Below, piece by piece: positions 6,001 through 15,000 of a stretch of 64,000 nucleotides of DNA. A program made the position numbers. This DNA comes from an uncultured Planctomycetota bacterium. GTDB lineage: Bacteria; Planctomycetota; Planctomycetia; Isosphaerales; Isosphaeraceae. The DNA lies in contig CAWJTV010000019.1 in assembly GCA_963845755.1 (NCBI GenBank), positions 1-64,000 on the forward strand, given 5' to 3'. Within the stretch, counting starts at the first letter, position 1. Each line of letters begins with the position of its first letter.

Positions 6001-9000
6001 CAACATAATGAACTCCACAACATAATTGTAATAATATGGTCAGCCACATTACTACAAGGTCATGACGGGCTCGGATCGCATGCCGGTGCTGATCGATCAG
6101 CGGATTTGAGGCGACAGCCGCCGGTCAGCCTGCATCCGGGCCGACGTGCGTAATGAGGGGCGCGTCGAAGAGGGCCATCTCCTCGGGCGTCGGAGCCTGG
6201 AAGATGTCGGACCATCGGGACAGCGCATCGTCTTCGATCGGCGGATTCTCCATGCCCCGGCGTTGAATCCGGTCGAAGAGGAGGTCCAGGGGCGCGGAGA
6301 GATAATGCAACTCTACGGAGGCGCCGAGCGCCCGTGCCCCGAGTCGCAAGGCATCGCGCTCAGCCCTTCCCCATGTGCCCCATTCGATGATCACAGTGAG
6401 ACCGAGGGTAAGAAGCCGCTGGCCGAATCCCCATTGCAGCGCCTCGATCTTCGCGCGACGCTCTTCGTCATAGAGGTCGAGCGACAGCGCCTCCAACCAA
6501 TCGTCGGGGGAGAGCCGGACCGCGCGCAGGCTGCCTTCCAGCGCCTTCGCCAGCGTGGTCTTTCCCGAACCCGGCAAGCCGCAAACGATGATCAGTCTCG
6601 GCCCGGCGGCGTTACTTTCCATGCGCGTGCGGCGTCAATTGCCCTCTGCCGCCTCCGCGAACTCGTCGTGCCGGCGGAACAGGAAGGCGACGCGTTCGCC
6701 GCGCCGTTCGAGCTCGTAGGGATAGAGCGTGTCGAACGGTCCGTCCTTATCGAGGCGGCCGCGCATGACGTGATTCCATTCGACGAGCGTGGGCATCATC
6801 GCGAAGAGCCGATCCTCCTCCTGTCCCGGCATCCGGACGAGGTGGCAGAACCGCTTGATCTCGTCGATCTTCAGCACCAGGCCGTCATGCGGACCGCGGT
6901 AGAATTCGGCGCGTGTGCCCGGCATGGGCATTCCTTTCGCATGCAAGGATGGATCTGATCCGTAGCCTGGGTGCCTCCTATGCTATTTTACCATCCCGGC
7001 ACCATCTGGCCAGCCGAACAGATATGGGTTAAGATTGCTGCATGCGTTGCTTCCTGGCCGTCTTCCTGGTCGCGCTCTCCATACCCGCCTTTGGGATGAC
7101 GCCGTGCGCGTCGTCGGCATCTCCGACGGCGACACGATCACGGTCCTCACCGCGGCGAAGAAGCAGGTCAAGGTCCGGCTCTGGGGGATCGACGCGCCGG
7201 AGACGGGGCAGGACTTCGGCAGCCGCGCCAAGCAGGGTGCCGCCAGCCTCGCGTTCGGCAAGCAGGTCACCATCCGCGTCCGCGATACCGACGGCTACGG
7301 TCGCACCGTGGCCGAGGTGATCCTGCCGGACGGCCGCTCGATGAACCGCGAGATGGTCGGGCAAGGGATGGCCTGCTGGTACAAGCAATACGCCCCGCGC
7401 GACGCCGATCTTGCCCGGCTCGAGGCCGAGGCGAAGGCAGCGAGGATCGGGCTATGGAGCCAGCCGAATCCCGTCCCGCCATGGTACTGGTGGCATGGCG
7501 AGGGCGTTCCTGAGACGGCGGACGTTAAGGGGAACCGACGAAGCCGTGTCTCTCACAAGCCGAGCTGCCGGGCCGCAGCGGTAAGGAGCGAGAAGAATAG
7601 GGTGACCTTCGCCAGCGAGGCGGACGCGGAGAAGGCCGGGTATCGGAAGGCAGGGGATTGTCGGTAGGACGCGCGATCCCTGAAATTGAATTGGCGAGGG
7701 GATGGGATTCGAACCCATGTCTCCGGGGTTCTAGCCCGGTGAGTTGACCGCTACTCTACCCCTGCGCCACCATCGTACGGCAGTTACGAACAGCGGTCAC
7801 GGCTTCTTGGGCGAAGTGGCAGACTTCACCGGAACGGCCTTCGGAGCCGCAGCCTTCTTGGGCTTCTTCTTTTCCTTGGTCTGCGAATGGTTGCCTTTGC
7901 CCATCGTCGTCGCCTTGATTTGGGGACTAGGTGGATATCACAAGAGTGTCCGTCCGGTGAAGTGCATCTACAAAGCGGCGTGACTCCCCGCGATGATAGT
8001 GCTGTCGGGGCCAGTGGTCCCGTCAGGGAGATCACGCCGTGTCTCGAAGCCGAACCATCGATCTACGATGGAATGCCCTCCTCAACGATTTCCGCAGGAG
8101 CGGTCTGACTCAAGCCGAGTTCTGCCGCCTTCGCCAAATCTCGCTTCACTCCTTCCGAAAGCATCTCTACCAGCCCGCCCCGGCCGATCGCACTCCCAGC
8201 GACGATCGTCCTTTCGCCAGTGCCGACCGCCATTTCCTCCCGGTCACTATCCTTCCCGATCCCATCCCGCCGAGCGCCGCCTCGGGACCCCACCTCGAAC
8301 TCATCCTCTCCAACGGACGTCGGATCGCCGTCGCCCCCGGATTCGACCCCCTGACCCTCCGCCATCTCATCGCGGTCGTGGAGGGACGCCCATGTTCGGA
8401 CTGAGCGCCGCGGTCCGCGTCTATCTCGCCAAACAGCCGGCCGACATGCGCAAGAGCTTTGACGGCCTGGCCGCCCTGGCATCAGGCAGCCTGGCGCTAG
8501 ATCCCCTCTCCGGTCATCTCTTCGTCTTCGTCAACAAGCGCCGCGACCGCATCAAGATCCTGTACTGGGATCGCGATGGCCTGGCCGTCTGGGCCAAGAA
8601 GTACGAGTAAGACTGCCCCCATCCTCTCGACTTTACAGGAATCGTCGGACACCCCCATAATCGCGCTGGCCGGCCTGATGCGGCTGGCGGAATGGATCGA
8701 AGCTCAACACCCCGTGATCCAAGGAGGTGCCCCATGTCGCGAGACGCCGGACTCGTTGCTCCCCCCCGCGCACGTCGGTCGTTCGGCCGTCGGTGCTGGA
8801 CCAACTCTGGAGCCGACTGACGGACGAGCAGCGTCAACGAACGCTGCTCACCCTCAGCGACATCGTGACTCGACAACTCGGCGCGCCTCGCACCGCTCAG
8901 GAGGTGCGCGATGAAATCTCGTGATGCACGGGCCGTCAATCGCACGGACAGATCAATCGACGAGACTCCATCGACCTCCACCTTCGGCCAGAGGTCGAGC

Positions 9001-12000: not shown

Positions 12001-15000
12001 GATCACTTGCCGCTCTATCGCCTCGAGGGAATCCTCGATCGCTCGGGCGTCGAGTTGTCGCGGTCAACGATGTGCGACTGGATGGCCACGATCGCCGATC
12101 TGCTCAAGCCGATCGTCGATCTGATGCTGAAGAAGATCCTCAGCTCCAGGGTCGTCCAGAACGACGACACGACGGTGCCGGTGCAGGACCACGACGGCAA
12201 GGGGATCAAGACCGGCCGGCTCTGGGTCTCCGTCGGCGACCGCGGCCATCCTTACGTGGTCTATCGCTACACGCCGGACCGCAGCGCCACCGGGCCCCGG
12301 GAGATCTTCAAGGACTTCCAGGGTTATCTCCAGGCCGACGCCTATTCGGCCTACGACGGCCTGTACAAGTCGGGCGAGATTATCGAGGTCGGCTGCATGA
12401 TGCACGCGCGACGGAAGTTCTACGAGGCGCGGACCGTCAACCCGCAACGGTCCCATCAGGCGCTGGCATGGATCAGCCTGCTCTACGACGTCGAACGCGA
12501 CGCCAAGAAGCGCGCAGACCGCGGACTACGAGGCCTTCGTCGCGTTCCGGCACGAACTGCGAAACGAGCGATCGCGTTCGATCTTCGACAAGTTTCACGC
12601 CTGGCTGGAAGCCGAGCAGCCCAAGGTTCTGCCCAAGAGTCCGATCGGCGAAGCGATCCAGTATGCCTTGAACCATTGGGAGGCCCTGAAGCGTCCGTTG
12701 GAGGCCGGGTTCCTCGAACTGGACAACGGTGCGTGCGCGGGCGCGTTCAAGCCCGTGGCGCTGGGACGGAAGAACTGGTTATTCGCGGGGAGCGACCAGG
12801 GAGGCCAGACGGCGGCCGTGTTGATGAGCTTGTGCACGACCTGCAAGAATCTGGGGATCGACCCCCAGGCTTACCTCCGCGATGGGCTCGATCGGATCAG
12901 CACGCACCCGGCGAAGCGGATCGACGAACTGCTGCCGGACCGCTGGCAGGAGTTGCACCAGGCCGGCGCCGACGGGACTGAGTGACCGCACCCGAGCCCC
13001 GCGCTCCTCGTCACCCCGGACGAGCGCGGGGCGATTGCGCGCGCCCCTCAAGGTTTGTCCCGCCCCAAGTTCGTCTCGGCCCGGCGCGAGCGCGGGATGA
13101 TCGCGTGCGCCGAGCACAGTGAAAGAATCAAGACGGTGCCCCGAACATCATCTCACGCCCGTGAACCGCTTTGAAGATGTGGTTCACCGGACGCACTCCT
13201 CACAAGAAGCATATCCTATCGCATGGCGGAGACGTCGGGGAGAAGCACGACCGCGGCGGGAACGATCTCCAGGTTCGATGGTTCACCCGCAGGTCCAACC
13301 TGCATCGGGTCTGGGATTCTGGGATCATCGAACGGTGGAGTCAGGACGAGTCCCGATGGCTCGACGACTTGATCGCGATGGGCACGCCAGAGGCCCGCCA
13401 GAAGGCTAAGGGCGGCTCCGTCGAGGAGTGGGTGACCGCGAGCCTGCTGGCGGCCCGGGATGCCTACCAGGACCCGGCGACGGGGCAGAGGATGAAGTCG
13501 GGGGCCAAACTGGGGGATGCGTACTACGAGCGGAGCCTGCTCGTGGCGAAGCGGCGGCTTTTTGAGGCGGGGGTGAGGCTGGCGTGGGTGCTGAATGAGG
13601 TGTTTCCGGTGGAGTAAGTTCCGAGACGGTCCGGATGAGTAGGCGGTCACCCCTTCCGGCACGCGGCCGGCCCCTCCCGGGTGACACGAGTGCGGCGCCG
13701 AGAATCGAAGGACTGAGAGTATCAAGGATGGGTCAGAGCATGGGCACGCCCGACCGATCGAACAAAGGCTCAATTCGGTCGTCTCGTCGTAGTCTCTGTT
13801 CTAGATCGGTTGAAGGAGTAAATGACCACGTCTTTCCAATCTTCCGCTTATGCATCAGCCCACGATCGACGAGTTCCATTATGTCGCTTCGTGCCGTCTC
13901 GTAAACGACGTTGTGGCTACTGCGATGAAACTCAATCGTGTAACTCTGGCCCGGATGTCGCAGCGCAAAGCTTATAAGGTCTCGTTGCCGATGGTTGAGA
14001 GTCGTGAACCCTCGAAGTTCCTTCTGGGCCGTTGCAAGTTGATTGGCGCGTCTCTGGATATATAAATGTAATTCATCGATAGCCCTGCGAATGACATCCG
14101 CATGATAGAGCAGAAAATAAGTCAGATCGTTTTCGTCTGTTTCACAGTGGAGAAAAGCTCGCCCGTACCTGACCGGAGCCTTCAAAATGATTCGCGATAT
14201 GGTTATGTATTCAAATAGCCAATAACCCTGCTTCAGCATCGACCAATAGAACAAAGCTCGCGCAGTCCTCCCGTTTCCGTCAACAAACGGATGGTCGTAT
14301 GCTAACCAGAAATGAAGGACAATCGATCGCAACATTGGGTGGATGAAACCATCAGGTATTTGGTTATTCGCGAATTTGCACATCTCGTCGAACCGTTGGT
14401 CTAGTTGCTCGGCTGGCGGAGGAACGTGGAACACGTTTCCCGTATCATCTCCGACGACGATGTTCTCGTCCGTGCGGCGGAAACGACCTGCACCCGATGC
14501 ATCGTTCAGAGTCCTATCTGTTATCATTCTGTGAACATCACAGATTAAATCGCGAGTAATATCCTTATTTTTGATTTCGAGAATGTATTGCATCGTTTGG
14601 TAGTTATTCAGGATCATCCTCTCGCTACGGTCCCGTGGCTTCCGACCCTCGCGTATCATTTTCTTGGCCACTTCCCTGGTCGTAGATGCACCTTCCAACT
14701 GGCTCGAGGTTATCGATTCCTCGATAAGCGAACGTACCAGATAGCTATCCCGCGTTTCTGGGTTCGTTATGGGCTCGGGCTGCTGGATAACCCCGCGAGC
14801 CAAGGAATCCACATGATGAAGACATTCCGGCAAAGGGTCTGGTAGGTTGAATACGAAAGGGACTCCGGCCTTGTCCACAAGCGGGATTTGTTTTGTCGGC
14901 GTTCGTCGGACCTTCAAGCCGAACCACCACGCTCTATGATCGAGCCCCGAGGGCGGGGTTAAATACCGCAGCTTATCCCAATGGACATACCTTCCCCCAA

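Follow-up and report, generated by a model that had tools for sequence, protein, structure and literature searches.

The tnpB gene of an IS66-family element in an uncultured Planctomycetota bacterium is interrupted, in all seven full-length copies of the element, by a 2,589-bp cassette that encodes a large serine recombinase (SR). We consider it highly probable that this cassette is an autonomous minimal mobile element, which targets an attB site in tnpB and is multiplied by transposition of its IS66 host. Such an element would be a parasite of a parasite, copied whenever the IS66 moves. We found no published description of an element of this kind in the literature. Coordinates below refer to the window, the 64,000-nucleotide stretch of contig C19 that was analysed; the genome to which it belongs is G000.

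The host element occupies positions 7946..13198 of the forward strand (5,253 bp in the window copy) and shows the hallmarks of the IS66 family, namely the gene order tnpA-tnpB-tnpC (matches to NF047593, NF033819 and NF033517), inverted terminal sequences and a duplicated 8-bp target. The left terminal inverted repeat (7946..7978, forward strand) matches the right one (13166..13198, reverse strand) at 27 of 33 bases. On the forward strand, tnpA (8039..8404) encodes an IS66 accessory protein TnpA of 121 amino acid residues (NF047593, 46 bits, above the cut-off of 28), and tnpC (11410..12985) encodes an IS66 DDE transposase of 524 residues when intact (NF033517, 411 bits for the intact copy on contig C22), in which Pfam models detect LZ_Tnp_IS66, zf-IS66, DDE_Tnp_IS66 and DDE_Tnp_IS66_C. 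The duplicated target tcacaaga lies at 7938..7945 and 13200..13207, with one extra c at 13199. In a sister species of the same genus (G001, contig C20) this target is single: the flanks overlap by 8 bp and the site is uninterrupted. The duplication is also intact at the C22 copy (gctcacgc), and the duplications are swapped between two inverted copies on contig C20 of G000.

A blastn search of G000 with 7946-13198 recovered the seven full copies at the places listed in the genome-wide survey's note, with 99.66-100% identity; among the variable columns of their alignment, 31 of 41 adjoin GCGC. The same search returned a partial copy on C13, in which bases 1-4322 run straight into a 96.5% variant of bases 691-5253. 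It also found a right-end fragment on C9 and, at C19:31436-31688, a tail of 256 bp. As the note had claimed, no copy of the cassette was found in G000 outside IS66 copies.

The cassette (8598..11186, forward strand) separates the invariant tnpB codons K69 and R70. The N-terminal half of tnpB (8392..8610, forward strand) retains residues 1-69, followed by KYE and a stop codon supplied by the cassette, and matches positions 2-64 of PF05717 (TnpB_IS66) and positions 1-63 of 90 of NF033819. The C-terminal half (11188..11370, forward strand) begins at R70 (RLERGTF...), is colinear with the intact TnpB of G001 and is covered by PF05717 positions 60-100 in a match that spans 11113-11370. The division of the TnpB domain over two genes, noted earlier, was thus recovered with both Pfam and NCBIfam. 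Both halves remain open and recognisable in all composites, and a conserved start codon for the C-terminal half is absent among them.

Uninterrupted versions of the site exist in relatives. IS66 bases 1-654 abut bases 3239/3241 at five places in G001, two in G021 and one in G003, the latter two representing other genera; all lack the cassette. Two of the G001 sites were read (L018 and L019), and both consist, letter for letter, of the left flank of the window copy, CAAGA and the right flank (GTCTGGGCCAAGAGGCTCGAA). Joining the flanks gives the intact tnpB of G001, and the earlier claim of empty sites in a sister species and in two further genera is borne out, except that the empty-site string proposed then contains CCCAG where both G001 copies have CCAAG. 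The IS66 of G021 is empty even though its TnpC (76% identity) is closer to that of the window element than the TnpC of occupied relatives.

In the window copy the core CAAGA is found on the forward strand at both attL (8595..8599) and attR (11184..11188). Junction alignments of 14 loci give a core of (C/T/G)AAG(A/C) at tnpB sites, reduced to AA at a secondary site (L029). The only stretch common to all junctions is AA, which we infer to be the crossover dinucleotide (8596-8597 and 11185-11186). The flanks join without gain or loss and the cassette has no target duplication; junctions of this kind, which have little more than a 2-bp crossover in common and lack a duplication, are characteristic of large serine recombinases. 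Because the core is CAAGA here and AA overall, rather than the shared AAG first described, the unit between crossover points measures 2,589 bp and not 2,585 bp. Dyad symmetry is modest, at 16/32 positions in the reconstructed attB and 14/32 in attP.

At its left end the cassette has a promoter-like site, TTTACA-18-CATAAT (8632..8661, forward strand), identified by its match to the consensus and possibly functional as a promoter; CTTTACAG at this site is kept among relatives. A small conserved ORF of 65 residues (8727..8924, forward strand; LDQLWxxLTDEQRQRTLxTLSGIVxRQL) overlaps the recombinase start. In an alignment of 16 sequences it is 40-78% identical to the first sequence, with six invariant columns; no family match was found in Pfam, NCBIfam or Atlas, and we presume that it has a role in the element. 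A C7 tract at 8761..8767 (forward strand) lies 150 nt before the recombinase start, at the overlap of two open frames; among 20 cassettes it is C7 in 15 and C6 in five.

The SR gene (8911..11093, forward strand) encodes 726 residues when intact, as in the C20 copy. Pfam and NCBIfam searches reproduced the Resolvase, Recombinase and Zn_ribbon_recom assignments made earlier (PF00239, residues 42-193; PF07508, 221-341; PF13408, 357-413), which together with a coiled-coil region assigned from sequence form the domain order of large serine recombinases. Residues Y45, R47, Q48 and S49 (YxRQS) are invariant in seven homologues with 43-80% identity to the first sequence, and we take S49 to be the nucleophile on the basis of the YxRxS motif. 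The intact ORF, the three domains and the invariant motif suggest that SR is a competent enzyme. The 120 best of the 90%-identity clusters listed are all 76-89% identical to it, and many of them come from contigs about as long as the cassette (2.5-2.9 kb). In the window copy, extra bases at 10215 and 10257 (SR) are missing from short-read contigs of runs X1, X2 and X5, and an extra base at 12516 (tnpC) is missing from the X1 contig. The frameshifts in these two genes are therefore assembly errors, and the earlier suspicion about the fragmented recombinase calls was justified for 10215 and 10257.

Searches of public genomes (genome_contigs) revealed the same arrangement elsewhere. Where SR is at least 67% identical, a TnpB half lies on its expected side at 14 of 18 loci and both halves are present at seven of the 18, with junctions that align at the same tnpB codon; at loci with 36-56% identical SR, none of six has a TnpB half beside it. 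All six metagenome matches to the left-end motif of the cassette follow a tnpB N-terminal half. SR is 69-83% identical to that of the window in hosts whose TnpC reaches only 37-61% identity, and closer pairs show the same disparity: identity between L021 and L022 is 99.7% for SR and about 46-48% for TnpC, that between L020 and L023 99.6% and 81%, respectively. In G044, a 2,594-bp unit is present with 99.96% identity at L032 (in tnpB), L029 and L030; the homology stops precisely where the cassette does, and the three sites have unrelated flanks. The survey's note had described a site-specific serine-recombinase element inside a transposon gene and had suggested, as one of two alternatives, that it seeks out this site; occupation of the same codon in diverged IS66 elements and the discrete G044 unit support both statements. 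Such comparisons fix the boundaries of the cassette and show that it is aimed at the tnpB site and independently mobile, and that the composite IS is mobile as well.

Genome G042 has eight identical intact tnpB copies beside occupied ones. In the copy that was read (L054), the site equals the two flanks of L022 joined, with one mismatch; the right half of this copy is 99.9% and its left half 94.7% identical to L022. The mosaics formed by L021 and L022 and by L022 and L054 break at attR, a pattern better explained by a swap of IS halves than by a simple attP x attB integration. Occupied IS66 copies are few outside G000: G042 has two tnpB N-terminal halves, versus 11 full-length tnpB matches. 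The cassette may therefore disable the IS as a rule, with G000 a possible exception. In the tnpB on contig C19 of G041, the crossover point holds seven additional bases, GAAGCAA, which match the first 6-7 bases of the cassette left end and are a footprint of cassette loss.

We propose that the insert is an autonomous element made up of the promoter-like site, the small ORF and SR. SR would catalyse recombination, most likely between attP of the element and an attB formed by the most conserved codons of tnpB (W67-x-K69/R70-L71-E72, the slash marking the insertion point), with crossover at AA, no target duplication and an orientation fixed as co-directional with the IS genes. Many diverged IS66 lineages would have been entered in this way, and unrelated secondary sites occasionally. 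Once inside IS66, the element would ride along upon transposition, by which a conservative cut-and-paste recombinase element gains a way to multiply. In G000, the founder IS66 copy would have been occupied already, and the composite would then have transposed at least several times.

Transposition of the composite as a unit in G000 is the most likely course of events, because there are seven near-identical copies with 8-bp duplications, the orthologous site of the sister species lacks the element and the assembly offers no intact tnpB. None of 18 TnpB_IS66 matches in G000 is intact (eight N-terminal halves, eight C-terminal halves, the C-terminal half of the C13 variant and a C9 gene without N-terminus), although the assembly is only 88% complete and an intact tnpB could be unassembled. 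This agrees with the other alternative in the survey's note, that the composite transposes with a broken tnpB, and our results support the view that the two are not mutually exclusive. IS66 would then cope without a whole TnpB. A point against this is that tnpB was reportedly needed for transposition of IS679 (Han et al. 2001). In its favour, an IS66-family member without tnpA and tnpB transposes in the laboratory (PMC12898284).

Another explanation, compatible with the one we prefer and in our judgement rather unlikely, is that the cassette is a reversible switch: integrated, it truncates TnpB; precisely excised, it rebuilds TnpB and so permits transposition of IS66 (of any copy, in trans), which would otherwise be blocked, so that SR gates IS66 activity. 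The joined flanks are indeed an uninterrupted tnpB identical to the sister-species gene, both halves stay open in all composites, seven copies arose in a genome without another intact tnpB, the G041 footprint indicates that cassettes do leave tnpB, and the best named NCBIfam match of SR is the excision recombinase profile XisF (NF041201), though at 72.2 bits it is far below the cut-off of 375. However, neither an empty copy (attB) nor an attP junction is present in the G000 assembly, an IS66 that had lost the cassette would transpose without it whereas all seven copies carry it, and there is no candidate recombination directionality factor. Contigs of four runs, which drop rare variants, contain no joint that skips exactly the cassette; the caveat that excision was not shown stands, and the skipping contig of run X6 is a diverged empty IS66 relative, as had been recognised. 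A broader reading, speculative but possible, is that such mini-elements form an undescribed guild of hyperparasites on IS66 tnpB, with at least two lineages at two invariant motifs (K69/R70 here, DMRK/SFDG for the second lineage, SR2), and that the present cassette gates IS66 as a reversible switch while being multiplied by it, or else that TnpB is dispensable. If the latter is true, the seven-copy burst without intact tnpB would answer a question that is 25 years old.

Unrelated IS66 elements are clearly within reach of the cassette, and the copies in G000 are so similar that they do not directly reveal the order of events; IS66 might thus have spread empty in G000 and been invaded copy by copy. 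We regard this as improbable. Serine-recombinase movement is conservative and on its own could not turn one copy into seven or more, there are no empty sites in G000 versus eight in G042, and the IS part and the cassette part of all copies coalesce to one sequence. Even less credible is that the cassette entered this IS66 lineage once, long ago, has been inherited with it since and is no longer moved by SR. Neither excision nor integration was seen directly in the contigs of four runs or in junction searches, but this reading is contradicted by the identical unit at three unrelated places in G044 and by the far stronger conservation of SR than of the host IS; moreover, closer IS66 copies (G021) are empty while more distant ones are occupied, and the SR ORF is intact after removal of assembly errors. 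That the composite is an artefact of a long-read metagenome bin can practically be dismissed: copies do differ by many indels near GCGC, and the left flank on contig C40 is the same as that of the window copy, yet the short-read X1 contig (3,555 nt, one other letter) spans both junctions, as had been reported, and the same architecture recurs at 14 loci of other assemblies and in six metagenome contigs.

Several known systems resemble the cassette in part. In Tn4451 and Tn5397, as here, a single large serine recombinase (TnpX, TndX) moves a discrete element without target duplication, with a 2-bp crossover at both junctions and with preferred and occasional secondary sites. These elements are 6-21 kb long, carry resistance or conjugation cargo and use GA, whereas the cassette is 2.6 kb long, has only the small ORF and SR, has AA instead of GA, and specialises in a single codon position within a transposon gene. 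An excised circle is known for TnpX; the corresponding attP junction of the cassette was sought in G000, 89 loci and viral_contigs and not found. Streptococcal integrative mobilizable elements with serine integrases also have their attB in a conserved gene of another mobile element on which the guest rides, but their host is conjugative; the host of the cassette is an IS, and the cassette is about tenfold smaller and lacks mobilisation genes. The skin (SpoIVCA) and fdxN (XisF) elements gate sigK or fdxN by recombinase excision. Like the cassette, they split a gene whose joined flanks restore the frame exactly, but they are 48-55 kb long, immobile, single-copy and excised in terminal cells, while the cassette is multi-copy and mobile between hosts; given its low score, SR is not an XisF equivalog. 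The IS607 family shares a minimal serine-recombinase design without target duplication. Its TnpA, however, has about 200 residues, carries a MerR-like domain at its N-terminus and is not very selective for its target, and the cassette was rejected as a member since SR has 726 residues, an N-terminal catalytic domain, the C-terminal domains of large serine recombinases (Recombinase, zinc ribbon and coiled coil) and a specific target. Group II introns and inteins in genes of mobile elements are likewise hyperparasites of the most conserved stretch of a host gene, which still works because they are spliced out of the RNA or the protein, in contrast to the cassette, which is DNA and leaves tnpB truncated.

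The IS66-family composite occupies positions 7946-13198 on the + strand of the window and is bounded by inverted repeats in which 27 of 33 bases match. An ORF listing and family scans place tnpA (NF047593) at 8039-8404, followed by the N-terminal half of tnpB at 8392-8610, which covers PF05717 positions 2-64 and ends in ..LAVWAKKYE and a stop. The 2,589-bp cassette (8598-11186) holds a small ORF, seen at 8727-8924 in the ORF listing, and, from 8911, the gene for a large serine recombinase (SR) with Resolvase, Recombinase and Zn_ribbon_recom domains. Beyond it, the C-terminal half of tnpB (PF05717 positions 60-100; ..K^RLERGTF.., where ^ marks the junction) runs up to 11370, and tnpC, the IS66 transposase gene with leucine-zipper, zinc-finger and DDE parts, spans 11410-12985; all of these genes lie on the + strand. 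The left and right cassette junctions (attL and attR) are borne by the 129-codon tnpB gene. Just to the right of the IS, the - strand has a 456-aa ORF at 13733-15103 that contains the Fic motif HPFVDGNGRTAR, and G+C around it drops from about 0.65 to 0.47; this stretch is probably foreign DNA.

In the sister species of the same genus (G001), element bases 1-654 abut 3239/3241 at five places, and the same joint occurs at two places in genome G021 and at one in G003, which bears out the genome-wide survey's note that IS66 elements of the sister species and two other genera are without the insert. The G001 empty site ..GATGGCCTGGCCGTCTGGGCCAAGAGGCTCGAACGCGG.. is exactly the left flank of the window, CAAGA and the right flank. 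Alignment of 12 intact TnpB sequences puts the break between K69 and R70, within the invariant run W67, K69, R70, L71 and E72. An AlphaFold2 model of intact TnpB built on a 12-sequence alignment, whose low confidence (mean pLDDT 63.7) makes it unsuited to fold searching, predicts the break at the end of strand 63-70, ahead of an RLE..G loop and helix 90-97.

The SR search, carried out with one genome per species, gave 24 loci. A TnpB half was found on the expected side at 14 of the 18 loci where SR is at least 67% identical, with both halves at 7; one of these 18 (L027) is uninformative and three (L026, L029 and L030) are at other places. At the six loci with SR at 36-56% identity no TnpB half was found. 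Junctions of the loci align at one tnpB codon, attL reading ..TGG-(TAC/GCC/ATG)-AAG^AAG-(C/T)A.-GAG-T(A/G)A.. and attR reading ..GATGCCA....CAAG^(A/C)GNCTNGA.., and the left-end motif of the cassette was present in six metagenome contigs, in all of which the tnpB N-terminal half directly precedes it. Identity to the proteins of the window's genome (G000) is 69-83% for SR but only 37-61% for the host TnpC, so the guest is less diverged than its hosts. Pairs of loci differ likewise: L021 and L022 have SR at 99.7% versus TnpC at about 46-48%, and L020 and L023 have SR at 99.6% versus 81% for TnpC and 61% for TnpA/B. Genome G044 provides the clearest case of the cassette moving alone, since a 2,594-bp unit, 99.96% identical, is common to a locus within tnpB (L032) and to L029 and L030; homology among the three does not extend past the cassette ends, and their flanks are unrelated. 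The junctions of L029 have only AA in common, from which we infer AA as the crossover dinucleotide. Comparison shows, at the level of sequence, that the cassette moves by itself and aims at the tnpB site; the survey's proposal of a site-specific element seeking IS66 tnpB is upheld by its use of one codon in diverged IS66 hosts.

Eight identical intact tnpB copies are present in genome G042. The site in the single copy read (L054) equals the L022 flanks joined, with one mismatch, and this empty element matches L022 at 99.9% on the right side of the cassette and at only 94.7% on the left side. Conversely, L021 has its left part and cassette as in L022 and its right part from another IS66. Breakpoints of the G042 chimeras (L021, L022, L054 and L056) are no more than about 12 bp away from attR; the left part and cassette are common at 95.6%, and two different IS66 types supply the right parts. 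Such mosaics at attR suggest exchange between IS66 elements that may have been mediated by the recombinase or by cassette homology. A cassette-free tnpB in another genome (L053, G041:C19:2972221-2972524) has seven extra bases, GAAGCAA, at the crossover point, which frameshift the gene and correspond to the first 6-7 bases of the cassette left end; they look like the footprint that imprecise excision of a lost cassette would leave.

No excision or integration events were seen, and contigs of the public metagenome runs X1, X2 and X5 contain no cassette-skipping joint. A contig of run X6 does skip the cassette, passing from 8563 to 11362 with 13 other letters between and 12 + 28 mismatches, and a loose end at 8594 in X6 reads on as intact tnpB. 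Both were rejected as excision traces because they come from diverged empty relatives, in keeping with the earlier view of the skipping contig as another IS66 relative. An X6 contig that joins 11271 to 7948 represents an IS inserted into an IS. The attP junction pattern had no match in viral_contigs, in the 89 loci examined or in G000.

A blastn search of the whole G000 assembly found seven full copies of the composite at 99.66-100% identity, along with a hybrid on C13, a piece of the right end on C9 and a tail of 256 bp on C19. Among the copies 41 alignment columns vary, 31 of which adjoin GCGC, and frameshift positions differ from copy to copy: SR is unbroken (726 aa) in the C20:715080 copy only, and the C21 and C22 copies have an unbroken TnpC. 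At 10215 and 10257 the window has extra bases without support in short-read contigs of X1, X2 and X5, and its extra base at 12516 is not in the X1 short-read contig; long-read errors thus account for the frameshifts, and the natural genes are whole, confirming the suspicion of assembly frameshifts in the recombinase copies. The 3,555-nt X1 contig reported by the survey, which crosses both cassette junctions with one other letter, was seen again. Differences at GCGC look like systematic long-read miscalls at a methylated motif, and G000 genes elsewhere may have false frameshifts at it. The C13 hybrid (C13:343105-351972) is a copy cut at base 4322 and directly followed by a variant (96.5%) whose first base is 37 bp into the cassette. 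The C40:79967 copy and the window copy share a left flank and differ in the right one, and the C19:31689 copy (C19:31436-36934) sits in the tail of another copy.

A perfect 8-bp duplication flanks the C22 copy, and the window copy has tcacaaga on either side with one extra base. Two copies on C20 (715080-720330 and 738506-743758), inverted and 23 kb apart, have swapped 8-bp duplications (ggcggctc and gaccagtt); because each has the other's duplication, the segment was inverted by recombination between the two copies. The window's two flanks are contiguous in G001, with an 8-bp overlap, and the window insertion is thus younger than the species split. All G000 copies are occupied and coalesce to one sequence, and the G000 assembly has no empty attB. 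Serine recombination is conservative, so that it alone would not have turned one copy into seven; most economically, the founder was already occupied and then transposed several times over. The survey had offered transposition of the composite with a broken tnpB as one option: on this economical reading the composite did move as a unit. Counting against the overall reading are the lack of any observed excision or integration and the small number of occupied IS66 copies in other genomes, so that the cassette may normally disable the IS.

The cassette is a natural tnpB knock-out, and the IS nonetheless reached seven copies with no intact IS66 tnpB in the G000 assembly, where the 18 PF05717 matches are 8 N-halves, 8 C-halves, the variant C-half on C13 and one gene on C9. 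A second recombinase cassette immediately precedes this C9 gene, whose sequence begins only at an SFDGL motif. Two alternatives follow for the spread of the IS: TnpB is not required, or it is restored by the recombinase when needed. To our knowledge no function has been established for IS66 TnpB, and IS679 is said, from work by Han et al. in 2001, to have needed tnpB. Dispensability in the G000 composite remains as an explanation, and PMC12898284 reports transposition of an IS66-family member that has neither tnpA nor tnpB. Rare excision that rebuilds TnpB remains as well. An intact tnpB copy that is present but unassembled also remains, the bin being 88%-complete. A two-piece TnpB would be unlikely because the C-half has no conserved start codon: its frame is open upstream of attR, 4 of 8 cassettes are without ATG, GTG or TTG in frame, and production of the C-half from a start inside the cassette was dropped as a conserved feature.

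At 35 bp in from its left end the cassette has a promoter-like TTTACA-18-CATAAT, the CTTTACAG of which is kept in relatives. The small ORF protein, collected as 16 sequences with 40-78% identity to the first, has invariant residues W28, L31, R36, L43, S44 and R49, belongs to no Pfam or NCBIfam family and matched only unnamed clusters in the ESM Atlas (best score 0.87). It also occurs beside distant SR homologues (L016, L040 and L041), and our guess is that it acts as a directionality factor or regulator. A C7 tract (window 8761-8767) exactly 150 nt before the SR start is present in 15 of 20 cassettes, with C6 in the other 5. Two open frames overlap there, one ending in ATGA on the SR start and the other having the conserved LDQLW domain, and distant relatives (L041) encode both parts in a single frame; overlapping genes, +1 frameshifting or phase variation are possible at this site. 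In SR itself, the YxRQS motif is invariant and a C-terminal extension of ~200 aa has helix-turn-helix-like stretches, as read from its sequence. The best named match is XisF, far below cut-off, and a PDB sequence search gave just a weak resolvase-domain match (3guv, 26 bits). The clade is abundant, since the best 120 listed 90%-identity clusters are all 76-89% identical to SR. Many of these 120 are on 2.5-2.9 kb contigs, a size expected of a repeat in several contexts that is isolated by the assembler; an X5 contig of 2,644 nt, which is the cassette alone at 97.6%, fits such isolation.

A second lineage, SR2, about 36-38% identical to SR, also splits IS66 tnpB, at the invariant DMRK^SFDG (codons 22-25). 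Its loci are G000:C9:4527-6894 (L047/L065) and two in genome G012 (L078 and L066, on C35 and C36), where tnpB residues 1-25 and 22-53 flank a ~2.45 kb insert with SR2 on the opposite strand. On G000 C9 the same cassette end as in G012 abuts SFDGL in the other orientation. TTCGAYGGC is found on both sides, and its palindromic core (TCGA) might let the cassette enter either way round. Reverse nesting is seen at L017 (G021:C5:3060000-3072000, about 2686-7764), where an empty IS66 with TnpC 76% identical to that of G000 sits inside a related serine-recombinase gene; pieces of the latter, 40-52% identical to SR, match residues 29-366 on one side and 366-709 on the other. Another multi-copy recombinase element is represented in G001 by at least five copies, on C14, C8, C4, C2 and C15, of a stretch that matches the middle of the SR gene at 66% identity. 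A Pfam survey of 142 frames flanking four G000 SR paralogues and L026 found IS66 parts only beside the C9 paralogue; the idea of a wider SR family targeting mobile-element genes was not upheld, there being no common target at the other paralogues or L026. Plasmid SR homologues (38-44%) from Leptolyngbya, Skermanella and Bradyrhizobium had no IS66 tnpB in their annotated flanks, for which PLSDB tables omit pseudogenes, and bases 5,000-30,000 of pNGR234a (y4bA, NGR234) held no SR homologue.

The cassette is a minimal element, with a single enzyme, a single small ORF and defined att sites, and its SR clade offers a compact supply of serine integrases whose natural attB/attP pairs are known. Nesting in a replicating transposon lets a conservative site-specific element multiply. 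Cassettes in different IS66 types provide portable homology and portable recombination sites. That they reshuffle transposons and chromosomes is suggested by the IS66 chimeras of one genome, in which the break is at attR. Split tnpB "pseudogenes" beside a "recombinase family protein" in Planctomycetota represent one element, not decay. Full-text searches found no paper linking IS66 tnpB with a serine recombinase; in PMC10061031 both terms occur, in unrelated table rows. As to known systems, SR is not an equivalog of XisF, and the cassette is not a member of IS607. In its mode of action it is akin to the TnpX/TndX transposons and to serine-integrase elements nested in conjugative-element genes, and in form it resembles a miniature version of the skin or fdxN element.
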